Assembly (NCBI GenBank): GCA_043727255.1
Contig: JAYSYW010000168.1
Location: 1 to 50,639 of the forward strand
Direction of reading: 5' to 3'
DNA from: Rhizobacter sp.
GTDB taxonomy: Bacteria; Pseudomonadota; Gammaproteobacteria; Burkholderiales; Burkholderiaceae_C
DNA: 50,639 nucleotides
In this document: piece by piece, positions 30,130 through 47,935 of the stretch
Layout of the letters: each line of letters starts with the position of its first letter
Position numbering within the stretch: position 1 is the stretch's first letter
Made by a program: the position numbers and the translations under genes
The notes under the pieces: generated by a model
Database searches by the model: none
What the model was told of the DNA's origin: nothing
Seen by the model: the letters and a program-made list of their open reading frames with translations, nothing else

Positions 30130-30422
30130 GCGTTTCAGCATCGGCCTGACGCCCATTGCGGCGTCTGTGGCGCGTCCACGGCCTGCCGATTGCGCGGCCC
30201 TGACGCTTGAGTTTGCTTGCGTTTACTTACCGCGCAGACCGATTACCCGCACGCGGCTACCCGCTCGCGCGGGCTCTGAAAGTCCCTCACCCGCCAACAA
30301 AATCACAGCGCTCTTCCGTGATGAGCGCCAGCTTGTGCCGCTGTCTTCGCAGGCAGCACGGCAAGCCAAGCGGTTCGGGCGAGAAGAGCTCAACCTTTCA
30401 ACAAATTCAGGGAGCAACGTTC

Positions 30423-31211
30423 ATGAAACGAATCATTTCAGGCATCTTCATCTTGGCCTCATTGACGGCGGGCAGCAGCGCGTTTGCGCAGAGCACCCAG
30501 ACCGTGTGCAGAAACCAGCCCAAGCCCTTCTCCGACGAATGGGTGCTGGAGCACACCTACACCGACTTCAACCAGTGCGGCGGCGGTTACCAGAACATGG
30601 CCGTGTATCGCCATGCCCCAGCCGAATTACGCCTCAACGTGTGCTCTGGCCAAGCACTGCCGCCCGGCTTTGGGGTGGAGAACGTCTACACCGACATGTC
30701 GAAGTGCCTGAACCAGAGCCAGCAGCCCCCGTCTCAGCTGTGGGGCAACGTGATGACCATCGCGAACCTGGCGGGCTTCCCGAATCTGAAGGTGTGCTCG
30801 TCCGGCACGCTGCCCAGCTGGTGGCGCATCACGGGCTATGAGTCGGGCAGCCGCTGCGCGCCGATGAACACACCGACCTCGCAGCCGCTGGCACCGAACA
30901 ACGTGGCCGTGGCCGAAAGCCTGGCTTCGTCGTGCCTGCTGACCGTCAGCGCGAACACCGTGCCCGCCGGAGGTACGTATTCCTTTACGTACTACGGCAA
31001 CCTGCCTGCGGGGCACACCGCGCACTGGTATGGCACCAAGAACGGCGTGCAAGACGCCAACCACGTTCCGTTCGGCTTCAGCTCGGCCACGGCGGCCTAT
31101 CAGTCGCAATCTAGCTGGGCCGGCACGTACACGCGCTACCTGCGCATCCGCAACAGCATCGGCATGGACATCTGCAACACGAACACCGTGACGGTGAATC
31201 TGCTGCCTTGA
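30423..31211 (+). CDS. Secreted hypothetical protein with three Cys-paired repeats and a C-terminal beta-rich domain
   Basis: Signal peptide MKRIISGIFILASLTAGSSAFA; GGGAG RBS; high GC3. Confidence 0.75.
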   Translation: MKRIISGIFILASLTAGSSAFAQSTQTVCRNQPKPFSDEWVLEHTYTDFNQCGGGYQNMAVYRHAPAELRLNVCSGQALPPGFGVENVYTDMSKCLNQSQQPPSQLWGNVMTIANLAGFPNLKVCSSGTLPSWWRITGYESGSRCAPMNTPTSQPLAPNNVAVAESLASSCLLTVSANTVPAGGTYSFTYYGNLPAGHTAHWYGTKNGVQDANHVPFGFSSATAAYQSQSSWAGTYTRYLRIRNSIGMDICNTNTVTVNLLP

Positions 31212-38093: not shown

Positions 38094-39116
38094 TCAGGCG
38101 GTGCCGTTGCGCACGCTGTTCACCAGCGCGGCCACGGCGAGGCTCATGTTGATCGGCACCAACTCCATCACCTGCTGGCCGGGCTGCACGCGGAACAGTT
38201 CATCGGCAAAGCTGTGCCCGATCTGCGGCACGCCATGAAAGTCGATCTCGGCGCGGCGGAACTGCTGCAAGCGGCCGGCCACACGTTTGGCCTGTGCGCG
38301 TGACTCCAAGCCGTTGAGCGCCGACGCCATCAGGCGCAGCGGCACCACGGTGCGGTCGAACCCGGCCGCGTGGCCTTCCACGTTGTAGGCGTTGAGCACC
38401 GAATCGAGCGTGCGCGGGGTGTCGAGCGCGATGGCGGCGTAGACCGAGGTGCCGGCGTGCTTCAAGGGGCGGCCGGGTTGCCATGCGCCGGCGTCCCAGT
38501 CGCGTCGCTGGAAGGCCGCGTGGTTGGCGTGCAGGTCGAACACATCGGCCAGCCGTGAGGTGAAGAAGAGGCCCCGGCCGCTGTGGCGGTCGGGCTGGCT
38601 GGTGAGCTTGCCCTTGCTGAGTTCGAGCATCGCCAAGGTCGGGTCGTCGAGTGCGAACGACTGGTGGATGCGCTCGAACAGGCCGCAGCCGTCATCGGAC
38701 ACCAGCAACTGCACATGGGCCTGCGTTTGTCGCAACGAGACGGTGACGCTCGTGCCGCCGCTGTGGTCAATGGCGTTGTTGAGCAGTTCGCTGAAGCTGT
38801 GCTGCGTCATGCGGCGCACTTCACGCGGCAGGTGAAAGAAGGGCGCGAAGTCGCGTGACCAGGGCAGGTCTTCGTCCAGCCCGGCCAGCGCATAGCGCCG
38901 CACCACCTGGCGCAGCAGGCCGGCCTTGAAATGCGGCTTGCGGGGTGTGCCCTCGCGGGTCAGCCAGTTCAGCTCGATCAGGCGCTTCAGGGCCTTGTTG
39001 GCGGTGGCACGCTTCACGCCCAGGTGCGCGGCCAGCGCGTCGGCCAGATCGTGTGGGTGCTGCGCCGCAGCCGGGGTGACCCATTGGGTCAATGCGTTGA
39101 TGTCGATGCGCGCCAT
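38094..39116 (-). CDS. HTH + HATPase + DUF4325 (STAS-like) protein
   Basis: N-terminal helix-turn-helix, ELLNNAIDHS, DDGCG, HSGRGLFF, C-terminal SRAQAKR...IDFHGV..IGHSFADELF. Confidence 0.8.
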   Translation of the reverse strand: MARIDINALTQWVTPAAAQHPHDLADALAAHLGVKRATANKALKRLIELNWLTREGTPRKPHFKAGLLRQVVRRYALAGLDEDLPWSRDFAPFFHLPREVRRMTQHSFSELLNNAIDHSGGTSVTVSLRQTQAHVQLLVSDDGCGLFERIHQSFALDDPTLAMLELSKGKLTSQPDRHSGRGLFFTSRLADVFDLHANHAAFQRRDWDAGAWQPGRPLKHAGTSVYAAIALDTPRTLDSVLNAYNVEGHAAGFDRTVVPLRLMASALNGLESRAQAKRVAGRLQQFRRAEIDFHGVPQIGHSFADELFRVQPGQQVMELVPINMSLAVAALVNSVRNGTA

Positions 39117-39396
39117 GGTGTTCGCTCCACTCCAGTCCAGGTGGACAGTGTCGACGCCGGGGTGGCCGACTTGAACCGGAAAAGCGCCGCTTTTGGCGCC
39201 CATTTCGGTTCACGAAACGGCGCTTGGCGCGGGTGGCGACCCCGCAGACCGGGAGGGGGGAATGCGGGTTGCACCGGGGGTGCGTCGCTACAATCTGCGC
39301 AGTTTTGGCGCGGTCCACGCCGGCTGCGGTTGCCTTCGCGCACCGCCCTCACGCCGCCACGCGCCCCCACCGTTTCGTCACTTCCTGGGGATAGCC

Positions 39397-40461: not shown

Positions 40462-40493
40462 TCCGCTTGGCATACCGCGTTTGCCTGACCCAC

Positions 40494-40518
40494 AGGCCGC
40501 CAGCAGGCGGCCTTTTTT
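40494..40518 (+). terminator. Rho-independent terminator after fba
   Basis: AGGCCGCC-AGCA-GGCGGCCT followed by a T run. Confidence 0.85.
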
Positions 40519-40567
40519 ACGTGCGCGCCCAACGTAAACTACCCGCCACACGAAACCAGAGATCGCG

Positions 40568-43500
40568 ATGACTGGCAAAAAAGTCCGAGGCGGTTCCAGG
40601 GATGAGACTCCTATTCTGAATGGCCCTTACGACGAGCCCCAGTTTCACTACGCGACCACGCCTGACGGCAACCTCGACTACCGCGACAAACGCCCTGGCC
40701 GACGCATCTTTGCGCCCGAGACGCCCCAAGTTCCCTTGGGGTCTGAGGCTCAAGGCGGGATGTTCGACATCAACGACTTCTCTGCCAGGTACCGCGACCA
40801 ACTGGTCAATCAGCTCCGCGAGCAAGTGACCGCGTGGCGCAAAGAGGGCTATGCCGGCGTGACCAGCCGGGTGACCCGAGACTTGCTTTCGTTCTGGTTC
40901 GAGAACCCTGAGCGGCCCGCGTGGCAGCGCCTTTTCTACGCCCAGAGAGAGGCGGTCGAAACGGCCATCTGGCTCAACGAAGTCGCCGAGAAGTCCAACG
41001 CGGGCACCCATTTGCTGAACCAGCTTCGCGAGGCTCGGCAAACCGTGGGCACGGGTGACGATGTGCTGCCCCGCATGGCCTTCAAGATGGCCACTGGCAC
41101 GGGCAAGACCGTGGTCATGGCCTGCCTGATCGTCTACCACTACCTCAACCGCAACCAGTACCGCAACGACGCGCGATACGCCGACTACTTTTTGTTGATC
41201 GCCCCCGGGGTCACCATCCGTGACCGGCTGAGTGTGTTGCGGGTGGACACCCATGCCGCCAGCGACATCGACGCGCAGGACTACTACCGGCAACGCAAGT
41301 TGGTGCCTCCTGCCTATGCCGGTTTGCTGGAAGGTTTGAACGCCCGCATCGTCATCACCAACTACCACGCCTTCGAGCAGCGTCTGATAGGGGGCAACAA
41401 AAAGAGCCCGCTCGACGGAAAGATCGGTGCCGACGGCAAGAAGGTCGAAGCGCGCGAAGACGAAGCACTGATGCTCAAGCGTGTGCTGGGCCCATTCAAG
41501 CCCGGGCGACGTCTGCTGGTGCTCAACGACGAGGCCCACCACTGCTACCTGCCCCGGGCCAAGGGCCGAGACACCGAAGAAGAACAAAGCGCCACTGAAA
41601 ACGAACGTGCGGCGGTCTGGTTTTCGGGTGTTCGTGCCATTGCCAGGCGCTGGCAGGTGCGCAGTGTGTATGACCTGTCTGCAACGCCTTACTACCTGTC
41701 CGGCTCTGGGTGGCCTGCGTACAGCTACTTCCCTTGGGTCGTCACCGATTTCAGTCTGATCGAAGCCATCGAGGCCGGCTTGGTCAAGATTCCCTTTCTG
41801 CCGGTGGATGACAGCTCGCAGGCCATCGGCGAGCCGGTGTTGCGTCATCTTTATGAGCACTGCAAAGAGTCGCTGCCACGCAAGGGCCAACGAACGACGC
41901 GCAAAGAAGCCGCAGACACGACCGAGAAAAAAGCCAAACCACGCAAAGGTGGGCAAACGGCTTTTGAGGCCCCACCTGAGCTGCCGGCCTTGCTGCGCAA
42001 TGCACTTGAGCAGTTCTACCGGCACTACGAAGCCTACGAACAAGGCTTGCGCGAGCAAGGTGAACAGTCTCGCGACTTGTACAGCGCTCCGCCCGTCTTC
42101 ATCGTGGTGTGCAGCAACACCACCGTCTCGAAAGAAATCTACAAACTGCTTGCGGGCTATGAAACCCTCGACGAACGCGGCAACCCCTTTGCCGTGCCGG
42201 GCACGCTGCCCCTGTTCTCGAATTTCGACCCGGTGACGCGGGCCGCGCGTCGCAAGCCACCCACCTTGCTGATCGACTCCGATGCGCTTGAGCACTCGGG
42301 GCAGATTGACGAAGACTTCAAACGTGTTTTTGCGCCCGAGATTCAGGCTTTCAAACGCGACTACCGGGTGACCCACCCCGAGAAATCGCTTGATGCGCTG
42401 TCAGACGCAGACATCCTGCGCGAAGTGGTCAACACCGTGGGCCGCGAGGGCAAGCTGGGCCAGCACATTCGTTGCGTGGTCAGCGTGGGCATGCTGACGG
42501 AGGGCTGGGATGCCAACACCGTCACCCACATCGTCGGTGTGCGTGCGTTCGGCTCACAACTGCTGTGCGAGCAAGTGGCCGGTCGGGCGTTGCGCAGGCG
42601 TCAGTACTTCATCGACCCCAAGACCGGCAAGTTCCCGCCCGAGTACGCGCACATCATCGGCGTGCCCTTCAAGTTTTTCAAAGGCGGGCAGACCGAGCTG
42701 CCCCCGCCGCAAGACATCAAGTTGCTGCGGGCACTCGACGAGCGCAGCGAACTGGCGATTGAGTTCCCCAACCTCGTGGGCTACCGCATCGAACATGCGC
42801 ACGACGTGGTGCGTGCCGACTTTTCGGGCACACCGAAGTTTGCGATCGACCTGCACCGCATGCCCGTGCGCACCGAACTCGGCAATGCGTTTTCATCAGA
42901 ACGCGACGAACTGCGGGCCGACCCCTCCCGCGTGCGCGACCAAGAGGTGGTGTACTGGATCGCCAGCCGTGTGCTCTCGCGCTACTTCCGCGACGAAGCC
43001 GGCCGTCCCCAATTGGAAAAGTTCGGTGACCTGCGTCGCATCGCGCAAGTCTGGTACGACACAAAGATCGAACTCATCGGCGAGACCGACCCCCGCTTCA
43101 AGCGCCTCGTGCGCTTTGAAGACGAAGCCCGTGTCATCGCCAGTGTTCACCAAGGCATTGAAGCCGCCGCCGTTGAAGAAGGGTTGCAGGGTCAGGCCAG
43201 CATCGTGCCCTTGCTCAACCGCTACAACCCCCGGGGCTCGACCCACCACGTGCACGCGGCCACCATCAAGCCGGTGTTCCCCACCAAAAAGAGCCACGTC
43301 AACCTCGTGGTCGCCGACACCGGCAGTTGGGAGCAGATCGCAGCCAAAACCTTCGAGCAGATCGACGCCGTTGAGAGCTACGTCAAAAACGCCTTTCTCG
43401 GTTTTGACGTGCCCTACGTTGACAACACCGGGGCAGAGCGGCGCTACCAGCCCGACTTTCTCTGCCGGGTGCGCACCCCGGGCGGTGAGCTTTTCAACCT

Positions 43501-43825
43501 CATCGTCGAGATCACTGGTTTTGCCAAAGACAAAGAAGCCAAGCGCTACTACGTGCAGCAACGTTGGCTGCCGGCCGTGAACACACAGCGCGAGCGCCTG
43601 GGCCTTGCCCCTTGGCACTTTGTCGAAGTGACAGACATCGAGCGCATCAAAAACCAGCTCACCGACGAGATTGAACGCGTCTCACGACAGATCGACTACG
43701 CGATAGACAACTCTGCATGGGGAGTGTTCAAACTGTTGTTGGCATTGCCTGACGACATGTTCCCCACGGAACGCCACGACCCATTCCCTGAAGTTCGCCC
43801 TGGCCTGCTGGACGACGACACATGA
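40568..43825 (+). CDS. res: Type III-like restriction subunit (Res; SF2 helicase plus PD-(D/E)xK nuclease, BPTD_3080-like) with VapB-like C-terminal tail
   Basis: KMATGTGKT (Walker A), LNDEAHH, LSATP, LTEGWD, EQVAGRALRR, YVKN, YQPDF...VEITG. Confidence 0.9.
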   Translation: MTGKKVRGGSRDETPILNGPYDEPQFHYATTPDGNLDYRDKRPGRRIFAPETPQVPLGSEAQGGMFDINDFSARYRDQLVNQLREQVTAWRKEGYAGVTSRVTRDLLSFWFENPERPAWQRLFYAQREAVETAIWLNEVAEKSNAGTHLLNQLREARQTVGTGDDVLPRMAFKMATGTGKTVVMACLIVYHYLNRNQYRNDARYADYFLLIAPGVTIRDRLSVLRVDTHAASDIDAQDYYRQRKLVPPAYAGLLEGLNARIVITNYHAFEQRLIGGNKKSPLDGKIGADGKKVEAREDEALMLKRVLGPFKPGRRLLVLNDEAHHCYLPRAKGRDTEEEQSATENERAAVWFSGVRAIARRWQVRSVYDLSATPYYLSGSGWPAYSYFPWVVTDFSLIEAIEAGLVKIPFLPVDDSSQAIGEPVLRHLYEHCKESLPRKGQRTTRKEAADTTEKKAKPRKGGQTAFEAPPELPALLRNALEQFYRHYEAYEQGLREQGEQSRDLYSAPPVFIVVCSNTTVSKEIYKLLAGYETLDERGNPFAVPGTLPLFSNFDPVTRAARRKPPTLLIDSDALEHSGQIDEDFKRVFAPEIQAFKRDYRVTHPEKSLDALSDADILREVVNTVGREGKLGQHIRCVVSVGMLTEGWDANTVTHIVGVRAFGSQLLCEQVAGRALRRRQYFIDPKTGKFPPEYAHIIGVPFKFFKGGQTELPPPQDIKLLRALDERSELAIEFPNLVGYRIEHAHDVVRADFSGTPKFAIDLHRMPVRTELGNAFSSERDELRADPSRVRDQEVVYWIASRVLSRYFRDEAGRPQLEKFGDLRRIAQVWYDTKIELIGETDPRFKRLVRFEDEARVIASVHQGIEAAAVEEGLQGQASIVPLLNRYNPRGSTHHVHAATIKPVFPTKKSHVNLVVADTGSWEQIAAKTFEQIDAVESYVKNAFLGFDVPYVDNTGAERRYQPDFLCRVRTPGGELFNLIVEITGFAKDKEAKRYYVQQRWLPAVNTQRERLGLAPWHFVEVTDIERIKNQLTDEIERVSRQIDYAIDNSAWGVFKLLLALPDDMFPTERHDPFPEVRPGLLDDDT

Positions 43826-44298
43826 CCCCCCTTCGTTACCTGCTCGACACCAACGCCTGCATCGCAATTCGCAACAACCTCAAGGGTCAAACGAGCAAAG
43901 ACCCCACACGGCAGGCCGCCGCCCAGCGGCTCATCGACAAATGCAAGGCCTTGCCGGCATCGACCCTGGCCATGTCGTTCATCACCTTGGGTGAACTGTC
44001 GCTGTGGGCGCAAAAGCACCGCGACGCTGCCCAGGCCCGGCAACTGCTCGGCCAGCTGCAAGCGAAAGTCACCGTGCTTGGCCTGCCCGTCGGGCCGGGC
44101 GGGGCGGGGCAGGCCGCCGATGTGGCCGAGCACTACGGCGCCGTGCGTGCCGAACTCGAAACCGCCGGCGAACGCATCGGTGCCAATGACCTGTGGATTG
44201 CCGCTCATGCGCGGTCGCTCGGGCTGACCGTGGTCACGGGCAACACCCGCGAGTTCAAGCGCGTGAATGGCCTCACGGTCGAAGACTGGACGGCCTGA
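43822..44298 (+). CDS. vapC: VapC family PIN-domain ribonuclease toxin
   Basis: YLLDTN (D9), ITLGEL (E58), IGANDLWIAAHA (D123), VTGNTREF (N141/E144), VEDW; ATGA overlap with res. Confidence 0.93.
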   Translation: MTPLRYLLDTNACIAIRNNLKGQTSKDPTRQAAAQRLIDKCKALPASTLAMSFITLGELSLWAQKHRDAAQARQLLGQLQAKVTVLGLPVGPGGAGQAADVAEHYGAVRAELETAGERIGANDLWIAAHARSLGLTVVTGNTREFKRVNGLTVEDWTA

Positions 44299-44300
44299 GC

Positions 44301-46949
44301 ATGGCAACAAAACCCCGCACTCCGAAGAAGCCCGCCGCGCCTAAGGCCAGCGCGGGCGACAGCGCCAAGGGCAGCCACCAGCCCGTCGATGCCATCGAGC
44401 ATGCGGCCGAACGGCCGTTCATCCCCAGCCGCGAAGAAGCGGGCTGGGAAGCCGAAGCCATTGCCGGGCGGCCTACGGTCAAGAGCGTGCCCTTGAACCC
44501 CGTGACCCACCGCGGGCAAGACCCCGAGCTGTACTGGCTGGGCAAATACGGCAGCACCGACGCGCAAACCGCGCTTGACGTGGACATTCGCAGCCTCTAC
44601 CGCCACGAGCACATCGCCCCCGAGACCTTGATCTCGCGGCTTTACCGCTTCAAAAACCGCGAGGCTTCGCAGAACGACCTGTTCGTCAACGAGTTGCATG
44701 GCAACCCGCTGGCACTCGACGAAGACCAGAAGCCGGGGGCCTATTACCACCGCAAAGACAAGTGGCAAAACCGGCTGATTCAGGGTGACAGCCTGCTGGT
44801 GATGACCAGCCTGCTCGAACGCGAAGGCATGGCCGGCCAGGTGCAATGCATCTACATCGACCCGCCGTATGGCATCAAGTACGGCAGCAACTGGCAGATG
44901 CGCATGAACGACCGCAACGTCAAAGACGGCGCGGACGACAACCTCAGCGGTGAGGGCGAAGTCATCAAGGCCTTCCGCGACACCTGGGAGCTGGGCATCC
45001 ACTCATACCTCAGCTATCTGCGGGACCGTTTGCTGGTGGCGAAGGAGTTGTTGACAGCGAGCGGATCGTGTTTTGTGCAGATCAACGATGAGAACGTGCA
45101 CCTTGTGCGAAATCTCGCCGACGAAGTTTTCGGCAGTGAGAACTACGTCGTGACCTTGGTCGTTAAGAAAAAGTCCGCTACGAGTCAGACTGAATCAGTC
45201 AACGACTTCATTTTGTGGTGTACGAAAAACTTTGAAGAGGCGAGGAAGAAGTTTCGGAAGCTCACTGTCGCGAAGGATCCGTTTGCTGAAAAGAGCCGCT
45301 ACAAATGGATCGAGTTTTTAGACGGCGAGAGGAAGTTGGTGAAGGAGTGCTCCGACGATGAATTGCGAGCCCCTGGTATTCGTCTCCTCAATGATGACTA
45401 CCCGTTGGTCAGCCAGGACGAGAGCGAAGCACGTAGCAAGCCCTACTACCTTGAAGGCGATCCCCAGCCGTACAACCCAGGGAAGGGGCGGCACTGGACT
45501 TATGACCCTGAGGTCGGGATGAAGCGCCTTGAGACGCTCAACCGGCTTCGAGCCGCCAATAAGACCCTCAGAGGGGTCGTGTATCACGACGACTACCCGC
45601 GTGAAGCGCTCTCGAACATCTGGGACTTTCATGGCGAGCGTGCACCACAGTATGTTGTGCAAACAAACAGGGGAATCGTTGAGCGCTGCATTTTGATGAC
45701 CACCGACCCGGGTGATTTAGTACTGGACCCCACCTGCGGCTCTGGAACGACCGCCTACGTTGCTGAGCAGTGGGGACGGCGCTGGATCACAACCGATACG
45801 TCACGTATCGCGCTCAACATTGCGAAGACTCGGCTGATGACAGCGGTCTTTCCCTGGTATCGACTGAAGGACCCCGCAGGCGAAGATATTCGTTTTGGGT
45901 TTGACTACAAGCAAGTGACGAACATTACGCTGAAGTCGCTAGCGAACGATCAGTTACCGGATGTTGAGGACTTGTTTGATGCCCCGCATGAAGACAAGAA
46001 AAAGCTGCGTGTCGCCGGCCCGTTCACCGTCGAAACCTTGCAAGGTTTCGAGCCACTGCCCCCCGACGCCATCGACGAAGCCAACACCTCGACGGACAAC
46101 GTGCAGCGCTTCACCGAACGGGTGTTCGAGCACCTCAAACATGCGGGCATCAAAAACGGTCTGAAGAACGAAACCGCCGTCTTCAACCGGGTCGACATGC
46201 TCAATGAAGACTCGGGCAGCCTGCACGCCGAGGGCTGGTACGGCAGTGCCGAGGGCGAGCGCAAGGCTTACTTCCACATCGGCCCGCAGTTCGGCACGGT
46301 GAGCCGCAAGTCGGTGAACGACGCCATTCGGGCGTGCAGCCGGCGGGCCGATGCCGACTGGCTGGTGATTTTGGGCTTTGGCTTCGAGAGCGATGTGGAC
46401 AACCGGCAGGTCACGCTCAAGGTCGGCAGCTTCGAGGTCACCAAGGTGCGCATGCACGACGACCTGATGCAAGACGGCCTGATCAAAAAAGACAAAAAGG
46501 CCGCCAGCTTTGTGACCATCGGCGAGCCCGAGATCGGCCTCATCGATGCCACCCTGCCCGACGGCCGCGCCGCCAAGCAGGTTGAAATCTTGGGCCTCGA
46601 CATCTACGACCCGATTGCCGACGAGGTGAAGCCACGCAGCGCGGCCGACATCTCTTACTGGATGGTGGACGACGACTACGACGGGGCCAGCTTCATCGCG
46701 CGGCAGGTGTTTTTCTGCGGCGGCGACCACGACGAGTTCGACAAGTACAAGCGTGGCCTGTCGCAACTGGCCGCCGCGAGCGTGAAGGCGAAGGTCGAGC
46801 GCACCTTGAAGGTCGAGATCGACGACGAGGCTTTCGAGCGGGTGTATGGCTTCAAGTCGCACCCCATCGAGGCCACACGCGGGCGTCGAGTGGCTGTGCG
46901 GGTGGTGAGCCAGTTTGGTGAGGAAAGCACCAAGGTGTTGAGCATCTGA
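44301..46949 (+). CDS. mod: Type III-like site-specific DNA methyltransferase (Mod, beta-class amino-MTase)
   Basis: NRLIQGDSL, catalytic IYIDPPY, then variable TRD, then SAM-binding [11 protein letters not shown]; C-terminal [12 protein letters not shown]. Confidence 0.92.
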
Positions 46950-47026
46950 CCCCGCTTGCCACAGGCGCCTCTTTACAATTCACCCCAATGCCGGGATCAA
47001 CCAACGGGCTCCGCGCAAAACACACC

Positions 47027-47935
47027 ATGACTCCATCCGTTCTCGAATCCACGCTCACTTCTTTGCCGCTGCTCGCCCGCGGCAAGGTGCGCGACAACTA
47101 CGCGGTGGGTGACGACCGCATTCTCATGATCGCCAGCGACCGGCTCAGCGCCTTCGACGTGATCATGGGCGAGCCGATTCCCGGCAAGGGCGCCTTGCTC
47201 ACGCAGATGGCGCTGTTCTGGTTCGACAAGCTCGGCAGCATCGTGCCGAACCACCTGACTGGCGACGACCCGGTGGGCGTGGTGACCGAAGCCGAACGTG
47301 CCCAAGTGGCCGGCCGATCGATGCTGGTCAAGCGCCTGAAGCCGCTGCCTGTTGAGGCCGTGGTGCGCGGCTACCTCGCCGGCAGTGGCTGGGCCGAGTA
47401 CCAGGCGAACCAGCAGGTGTGTGGCGTGAAGCTGCCGGCCGGTTTGAAGAACGCCAGCAAGCTGCCCGAACCCATCTTCACGCCCGCGACCAAGGCCGAG
47501 ATGGGCGACCACGACGAGAACATCGCGTTCGACCGCATGGAAAGCATCGTCGGCCCCGAGTTGGCGAAGCGGGTGCGCGAAGTGTCGATCCAGCTCTACA
47601 AGACGGCGGCCGACTTCGCGCTGACCCAGGGCATCATCATTGCCGACACCAAGTTTGAATTCGGGCTCGATGCCGACGGCACGCTGACCTTGATGGACGA
47701 GGTGCTCACGCCCGACTCATCGCGCTTCTGGCCGGTTGAAGGTTATGAAGCGGCATTCCAGGCTGGCAAGAATCCGCCCAGCTACGACAAGCAGTTCGTG
47801 CGCGATTGGTTGGAGCAGGCACGCGTGAACGGCGAGCCCTGGAACAAGCAGGCACCCGCACCGGCCTTGCCGCCGGACGTCATCGCCCACACCGCCGCGA
47901 AATACCGCGAAGCGCTGCAACGGCTGACTGGCTGA
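47027..47935 (+). CDS. purC: Phosphoribosylaminoimidazole-succinocarboxamide synthase
   Basis: [42 protein letters not shown]. Confidence 0.98.

Follow-up and report, generated by a model that had tools for sequence, protein, structure and literature searches.

The window analyzed here is a 50,639-nt stretch of Rhizobacter sp. DNA (GenBank assembly GCA_043727255.1, contig JAYSYW010000168.1, positions 1 to 50,639 of the forward strand). It carries a restriction-modification (R-M) cassette (40462 to 47029, with no strand assigned to the unit as a whole) that is flanked by fba and purC and contains three plus-strand genes in the order res, vapC, mod. The first gene, res (40568 to 43825), encodes a 1,085-aa Type III-like restriction subunit of the BPTD_3080 family with a C-terminal antitoxin tail. 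The second, vapC (43822 to 44298), encodes a 158-aa PIN-domain toxin, and its start overlaps the res stop, with the two sharing the ATGA at 43822 to 43825. The third, mod (44301 to 46949), encodes an 882-aa N6-adenine-type DNA methyltransferase with DPPY at aa 187; it matches PADLOC MTase_III (E = 7.5e-149) and Pfam N6_N4_Mtase and overall is a Type III-like methyltransferase. The locus combines an SF2 ATPase Res with a neighboring N6-adenine Mod, as expected of a Type III-like R-M system, and has a toxin gene inside the R-M locus, in an order that its relatives keep.

A terminator-like hairpin on the plus strand (40494 to 40523; a pattern match only) lies 3' of fba at the left edge of the cassette. 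A consensus scan found no promoter-like site on the plus strand, and no integrase lies within 40462 to 47029. The cassette is a patchy insertion, because fba and purC are at most 216 nt apart in most congeneric loci (20 of 25) and because, among 151 related genomes, the only Res with >40% identity is the window's own. In one relative, L002, the fba-purC site is occupied as well, there by a cassette with a DUF2281/PemK pair (L002, 4749 to 14971). In two other loci (L004 and L006), a long gene lies upstream of res, and judging by its N terminus we take it to resemble metH. The res-vapC junction is covered by two Logan contigs with zero differences, both of which may be the source of the window DNA. 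Since these contigs agree and orthologs elsewhere have the same fusion, we conclude that the fusion is not an assembly artifact.

Two other open reading frames in the window were recorded. One, of 334 aa (30207 to 31211), lies where the GC content is slightly lower and combines cysteine-rich repeats with a signal-peptide-like stretch. The other (38094 to 39203, minus strand) adjoins fba and has an HTH-like start and an ATPase-like middle; its assignment to a family is presumptive on our part.

The Res protein and its nuclease domain

Res scores 992.7 bits against the NCBIfam BPTD_3080 model NF046055 (cutoff, 800), and the match covers aa 13 to 1034 only. It also matches Pfam ResIII and has the Walker A motif TGTGKT at aa 176 and DEAH at aa 321. 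The AlphaFold model has a PD-(D/E)xK-like nuclease domain at ~aa 936 to 1038 (43373 to 43681, plus strand), with P962-D963 and E981-I-T. A Foldseek search with the nuclease-plus-tail model gave nothing at E ≤ 0.001 and only weak matches (E > 0.01), which were to PD-(D/E)xK nucleases.

In the window nuclease, PD...E-I-T replaces PD...E-x-K, and a D-K is present downstream (43508 to 43534). Threonine or serine is found at the ExK lysine site in all 63 loci that bear a linker or a tail and also in most tail-less loci. Among the 146 aligned rows that have the Glu, 109 have T, S, or N at the ExK site together with the downstream Lys, while 25 have Lys at the ExK site and a non-Lys residue downstream; both lysines are present in 1 row and neither in 11. 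Since lysine is found at either site and almost never at both, the catalytic lysine seems to have migrated, and K989 is probably the relocated catalytic lysine of the Res nuclease. Given this proposed relocation, the nuclease is probably still active, so that Res would not be a mere decoy.

The C-terminal extension of Res

A preliminary description of this DNA, made from the sequence alone, had proposed that a VapB-like C-terminal peptide is joined in frame to Res behind the nuclease domain. The peptide is in frame, as part of the 1,085-aa open reading frame from 40568 to 43825. For comparison, we fetched 79 genome loci of Res relatives from the best 80 of 594 confirmed stretches. In the alignment of homologs, which the preliminary description had suggested as a check, homology with the closest tail-less Res proteins ends at ~aa 1038 (nt 43681), where those proteins stop, so 43682 to 43822 is a true extension. 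Some relatives continue past the end of the nuclease with a short helix followed by 25 to 45 more residues.

The extension has two parts. The first is a linker (43682 to 43705, plus strand; ~aa 1039 to 1046) that prolongs the last nuclease helix and is common to all tail types of the clade; the proposed helical linker is thus borne out both by the model, in which it is a helix, and by its conservation in the alignment. The second is the VapB-derived, putatively toxin-neutralizing tail (43706 to 43822, plus strand; aa 1047 to 1085), delimited by profile searches and by the predicted VapC interface. In our reading, the antitoxin-derived part starts close to nt 43706, since sister loci that differ in their tails are no longer alike in DNA sequence beyond the linker and since the match of the tail to a solved VapB begins at ~aa 1047. 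The junction had originally been put near 43680. Tail-less Res proteins do end there, but the VapB-like part begins some way downstream, at ~43706.

The tail consists of an amphipathic helix (W1051 to L1060), the stretch P1061 to F1065, a two-arginine motif, and an acidic end. In the motif, R1069-H-D-P-F-P-E-V-R1077 (43772 to 43798, plus strand), the arginines are eight residues apart; R1069 is present in 24 of 27 aligned tails and R1077 in 22 of 27. In an AlphaFold model of the last 150 aa, the nuclease helix continues into the linker and is followed by a helix at ~aa 1050 to 1059 and a low-confidence end, as expected for an antitoxin tail modeled without its partner.

Low G+C content had been read as a sign that this segment has a separate origin. 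The count on which this was based (29 of 60 at 43681 to 43740) is correct, but it is not distinctive: within res, 41 of 3,199 60-nt windows contain no more G+C than this (minimum, 27), and GC3 is no higher than that of the tail in 89 of 992 47-codon windows. Among 59 relatives, 46 have a lower GC3 in the tail than in the rest of res. Since the dip in the window falls inside the range of the res gene, we rejected composition as weak evidence of separate origin.

Relationship of the tail to VapB antitoxins

To represent free VapBs, we collected 24 AbrB-type antitoxins from the 28 loci examined upstream of the closest free VapC homologs in 300 genomes and made an HMM from their last 34 residues, using as the null the 4,722 long-ORF C termini of the host's own genome. 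The window tail scores 8.5 bits and ranks 3rd against the 4,722 (best null, 11.6 bits). Only 2 of 17 tails of the window type (A1) beat the best null with this profile, while all 22 tails of a second type (A2) score 17.8 to 28.9 bits. In the reverse test, a profile of 14 A1 tails places 3 of the 24 free VapBs above the best null. With hhalign, the tail profile matches free VapB C termini with a probability of 78 to 93%. A search of 5.8 billion proteins with a 27-tail profile gave 7 matches at E ≤ 10 among 400 candidates, and 4 of these are AbrB/MazE antitoxins (E = 1.9e-5, 9e-5, 0.10, and 0.19), the top two of which exceed the NCBIfam VapB cutoff. The best PDB match of the tail profile is the VapB 3zvk_E (E = 0.0011). 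The tail alone matched no antitoxin or VapB model in Pfam or NCBIfam.

The similarity to VapB C termini is therefore weak for the single window sequence and clear for the tail family, and the link between the window tail and VapB is partly transitive, by way of the A2 tails. At the level of sequence profiles, these searches show that the tail is homologous to VapB C termini. Together with the two-arginine motif and a complex prediction that passes, they uphold the proposed VapB-like C terminus. The proposed absence of the DNA-binding half also stands, in that Res has no match to PF04014 (MazE/AbrB) or to NCBIfam VapB models, which free VapBs do match. In PMC5389673, arginines eight residues apart let one VapB block both sites of the VapC dimer, and the third residue of the arginine motif is acidic or an amide; the R-x-D...E-x-R spacing of the tail equals the spacing given there. 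Aromatic anchors and an active-site arginine of VapB are described in PMC3384007.

The antitoxin segment overlaps vapC from upstream but is fused to Res rather than being a small free-standing antitoxin. A six-frame HMM search found no free VapB elsewhere in the genome assembly, which is 81% complete. We likewise rejected the production of a short antitoxin by internal initiation, because no start with a ribosome-binding motif is shared among the loci; an in-frame start of this kind is present in only 4 of 60 tail-bearing loci, at differing positions, and the window has none. With neither a free VapB nor an internal start, the Res tail is the only visible neutralizer of an intact VapC. One protein, P0201, is a free AbrB-type VapB that matches A2 Res tails nearly perfectly over its final 27 residues; it is possibly a donor or recipient of an A2 tail, or else a chimeric contig.

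VapC and the predicted tail-VapC complex

VapC matches Pfam PIN with 49.8 bits, above the cutoff, and matches VapCs in the PDB down to E = 5e-16, although it falls below the cutoffs of two named NCBIfam VapC subfamilies. Its acidic residues D9, E58, D123, and E144 are intact; among 27 VapCs the first three are invariant, and E144 is present in at least 90%. When the tail was folded with VapC, the complex scored 0.80, compared with 0.00 for the best of three controls, and at least 97% of contacts recur between runs, with a partner pLDDT of at least 72. The pass mark used is reached by 116 of 157 solved pairs and by 2 of 215 mismatched pairs. The preliminary description had named a lack of profile similarity to VapB together with a lack of predicted or measured binding to VapC as a result that would speak against it; binding is instead predicted, although the score may stem from likeness to solved VapBC structures.

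The predicted interface consists of VapC residues 10 to 11, 58 to 59, and 118 to 124, which surround D9, E58, and D123. In the model, the tail helix is predicted to pack on the side of VapC, with R1069-x-D1071 entering the active site, and R1077 may reach the second site of the VapC dimer. VapCs that accompany window-type tails have an insertion of 13 to 14 residues after the first helix (43870 to 43930 in the window), which is missing from A2-paired and free VapCs and accompanies two features of the tail, the invariant W1051 and the acidic end.

Association of tail type with the downstream gene

We enlarged the set of genome loci with a metagenome scan seeded with ten tail-bearing C termini, which added 80 loci (the best 80 of 253). 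The Res end was readable in 136 of 159 loci. The 23 left out are genome loci in which the contig ended, the nuclease was unmatched, or the stop was misplaced; locus L132 was excluded from all analyses. The next 600 nt after Res were scanned with profiles made from free toxins only, and tail classes were assigned by eye with the downstream open reading frames in view. A VapB-like tail is followed by VapC in 34 of 38 loci, the other four being two contig ends and two remnants, and a DUF2281-like (B) tail is followed by PemK/MazF in 21 of 21, one of them truncated and one cut by a contig end. In contrast, VapC or PemK follows tail-less Res in 0 of 73 loci (one of which is a contig end). These loci are not independent, since tail-bearing sequences served as seeds for the metagenome scan and many of the loci are near-copies.

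The B tails match the C termini of free antitoxins encoded upstream of free PemK genes. All four of the scanned antitoxins of this kind match DUF2281, two of them above the cutoff, and PMC4963859 lists DUF2281 as an antitoxin type. With a profile of free DUF2281-like antitoxins, 16 of 21 B tails score above the best null; none of 39 A tails and none of 38 tail-less ends does. As judged from these sequence comparisons, the window tail belongs to a set of antitoxin tails that can replace one another, each with its cognate toxin.

At three loci, a Res with only the linker is followed by a complete TacA-type gene pair, and a TacA1-type antitoxin gene lies directly after the linker-only Res (L163, 817 to 1125; L185, 4364 to 4672; L187, 767 to 1075). 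This arrangement is possibly a reversion or a state that precedes fusion.

Exchange, selection, and decay of tail and toxin

A tree of Res cores, with linker and tail removed, was built from 100 rows after omission of 14 short, 1 motif-less, and 5 duplicate sequences. In it, 47 Res cores group together (support, 98) that belong only to A1, A2, and B proteins and to one linker-only protein. All 47 have the linker and 46 have an antitoxin tail, and the cassette has been replaced repeatedly at the same junction. The B label changes 9 times on this tree, and at least 7 of these changes are forced by supported branches. Clusters formed at 90% hold proteins with different tails, with 977 of 1,039 core positions identical in a B versus A1 comparison and 907 of 1,005 in a B versus A2 comparison. 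These alignments show that tail and toxin have been swapped as a cassette on Res backbones that are up to 94% identical.

The 31 fused VapCs lie on one side of a branch that separates them from 28 free VapCs (support, 84). This fits a single capture followed by movement among Res backbones and does not support separate capture of VapC by A1 and A2. Pooled dN/dS is 0.185 for the tail (14 chosen pairs), 0.24 for the toxin (13 pairs), and 0.17 for the nuclease (14 pairs), values that indicate purifying selection on both tail and toxin. At five loci (L023, L144, L157, L166, and L174), the tail is intact and the toxin is broken, though L174 may be a sequencing error. At two of them (L144, 3872 to 4069; L157, 4417 to 4560), deletions have left only the beginning of the toxin gene, now fused to part of mod, behind an intact tail; in L144 that part is the 3' end of mod. 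The reverse, loss of the tail with VapC or PemK kept, was found at none of 73 tail-less loci.

Function of the fusion

We put the probability that the tail is a working neutralizer of VapC, with Res serving as the antitoxin, at roughly 0.9. In the mechanism we propose, the tail of Res would bind and inhibit the VapC encoded directly downstream, and expression would come from the res-mod operon by translational coupling, without the autoregulation normal for toxin-antitoxin (TA) systems. When a phage attacks, the RNase would be set loose by anti-restriction proteins, by host shut-off, or by proteases acting on Res or on the disordered tail; this release is the step that we infer. Freed VapC would then arrest translation and lead to abortive infection or dormancy, like PrrC behind EcoPrrI. 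If the nuclease is active, the cell would have restriction as a first line of defense and a second line covalently attached to it. That the purpose of VapC is such a back-up defense, freed when Res is disabled or lost, has in our judgment slightly better than an even chance. We favor it because of the precedents of PrrC and Ronin, the selection on the toxin, and the repeated exchange of toxin type. Against it, the tail has no visible sensor. In addition, the Res-Mod spacer gains many unrelated cargo genes, whole TA pairs included, and the fusions could have recurred simply because this site is a hotspot.

The tail could instead neutralize VapC and be selected, with no phage trigger, for retaining the cassette and an untruncated res. 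In that case any deletion, nonsense change, or insertion in res would remove the antitoxin and the cell would be killed. The position of the tail at the extreme C terminus suits this explanation, since it is lost in every truncation, as does a patchy cassette that lies beside housekeeping genes without an integrase. A swap of toxin type could evade cross-neutralization by resident antitoxins, and Type III systems are not known to be addictive on their own. However, because vapC overlaps the res stop, truncation of res should reduce VapC synthesis as well, and a 1,085-aa enzyme is not obviously labile as an antitoxin. Escape from addiction is also easy, because single deletions remove the toxin, in some cases with part of mod (L144, L157, and L023). 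We therefore regard selection for retention as unlikely, though worth keeping in view.

Another explanation involves no benefit at all. A TA operon would land in the Res-Mod site, a deletion would join the C-terminal half of the antitoxin to res, and the pair would be kept only because the toxin needs neutralizing, with decay to follow. Raw material for such events is visible in the same spacer, where unfused TA pairs are found (TacA/GNAT in L163, L185, and L187; others in L030 and L076), and the broken toxins at five loci look like the expected decay. P0201 suggests traffic between free and fused VapB, unless it is a chimeric contig. However, a useless toxin would be expected to be lost, not exchanged. 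Purifying selection acts on the toxin itself (dN/dS, 0.24), all 31 fused VapCs belong to a single group that diversified together with the fusion, and the 47-member Res clade has kept its linker throughout, and its tail in all but one member, while the cassette was replaced repeatedly at one junction. These points make a purely neutral origin and maintenance distinctly improbable. Finally, that the tail is unrelated or a relic, with VapC controlled otherwise or harmless, is very improbable: the single window tail is weak by profile, matches no curated VapB model, and a free VapB could be missing from the incomplete assembly, but tail and toxin are paired almost perfectly in two toxin families, the tail is conserved in its arginines and its dN/dS, and its predicted complex scores far above the controls.

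Antitoxin parts in other Res clades

L023 lies outside the supported group and has its own VapB-like tail, followed by an internally deleted vapC; this tail does not score with the free-VapB profile. To survey other extensions, we inspected the best 150 matches from a profile search of 1.84 billion representatives. Full-length BPTD_3080 Res proteins that end in a nucleotidyltransferase (MNT) domain were found (P0205, with 79 members, P0207, and P0209 to P0211), and the three Res-MNT proteins that were scanned match the MntA antitoxin model, below its cutoff. The genomic context of Res-MNT was not found in 301 genomes of one phylum or in phages. A fragment, P0027, has Res, a partial MNT, and HEPN in one frame. 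In another Res fragment, P0071, the tail matches the ends of CopG/RHH-type genes that lie upstream of vapC in plasmids (E of ~3e-3). The tail of a third fragment, P0138, is acidic and then helical and presumably resembles a RelB-like antitoxin end; it had no match in plasmids or among short proteins, and since both searches were empty, P0138 was not counted as a RelB-like fusion. The C-terminal 150 aa of the window Res matched 24 plasmid records, mostly through the nuclease only.

One tentative generalization, to which we give a little less than an even chance, is that the C terminus of BPTD_3080-family Res is a plug-in socket for antitoxin parts of the AbrB-VapB, DUF2281, MntA-like, and CopG types. 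Neutralizing parts of unrelated TA systems would have been added to Res again and again; the toxin would then be a tripwire for the condition of the enzyme, and its type would change, cassette by cassette, in an arms race with phage counterdefenses.

Relation to known systems

Like the AbrB-type VapBC systems of Shigella flexneri (PMC3384007), Caulobacter crescentus VapBC1 (PMC5389673), and PDB 3zvk, the window locus has a PIN toxin with an acidic quartet, an antitoxin C-terminal helix and extended tail with two arginines eight residues apart, and an antitoxin coding sequence immediately upstream that overlaps the toxin start. Unlike them, the Res tail lacks the AbrB half, and with it operator binding and conditional cooperativity. 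The neutralizing half forms the end of a 1,085-aa restriction subunit, where a DUF2281-type tail, then with PemK/MazF, can take its place.

PrrC and its Type IC partner system EcoPrrI are also similar, in that an RNase toxin gene lies in the R-M locus and R-M proteins keep the toxin inactive, as is predicted for the window; according to PMC12707154 and PMC3710099, a block of restriction is proposed or shown to trigger PrrC. PrrC as described there is an ABC-ATPase/HEPN protein held noncovalently by a Type I enzyme. In contrast, the putative inhibitor in the window is a peptide of TA origin that forms the end of a Type III-like Res. The effectors of these loci are standard toxins, VapC (PIN) or PemK, and not an ABC-HEPN anticodon nuclease or RonA.

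Ronin and EcoR22I are both described in 10.1101/2023.04.06.535777. In Ronin, the R-M proteins HsdMS suppress the toxin RonA, and in EcoR22I a Type III system couples restriction to cell death upon sensing Ocr. Unlike the window, Ronin has no nuclease subunit and its toxin is a 61-aa membrane protein, EcoR22I has no known death domain, and neither is described as using a fused antitoxin. The embedded defense genes of 10.1101/2024.01.29.577857 and the Pez-Ham system (PMC13064477) likewise have variable cargo in or beside a core defense operon, and this cargo includes PIN and RelE proteins or whole TA pairs. There the cargo is separate, while in the window half of it is joined in frame to the core enzyme. 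HEPN fusions to restriction endonucleases and helicases (PMC3710099) are convergent fusions of TA domains to R-M subunits, and fused toxin-antitoxin genes (PMC11980606) are TA-type domain fusions in which antitoxin is joined with toxin. Those fusions attach the toxin to the enzyme or to its antitoxin; in the window the antitoxin is attached to the enzyme and the toxin is a separate protein that could be released.

Full-text literature searches (with supplements and most subscription papers outside their scope) gave no description of an antitoxin fused to a restriction subunit, and BPTD_3080 is not mentioned in the literature searched. The supplementary candidate lists of 10.1101/2024.01.29.577857, which fall outside the search, could include such loci. 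The principle of a toxin caged by an R-M system is thus known, and its construction by a fused antitoxin tail, of which we could not find a description, is apparently new.

R-M back-up toxins are known from a few cases (PrrC and Ronin), each with specialized proteins, and the way in which the R-M enzyme holds the toxin is understood only in outline. In the window, the predicted holding element is a defined peptide of 39 residues that belongs to a known structural type and is part of the enzyme. Nature also offers variants with 90 to 94% identical Res proteins that are set apart by tail and toxin alone. The choice between defense and addiction, and the question of how the state of the enzyme is converted to arrest, are therefore directly testable. 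The fusion also explains seemingly orphan vapC and pemK genes within R-M operons; TA finders would miss such pairs, because a small antitoxin gene is what they look for. If the C terminus of Res is indeed a socket for antitoxin parts, any ordinary TA toxin would become a reporter of the state of the restriction enzyme.
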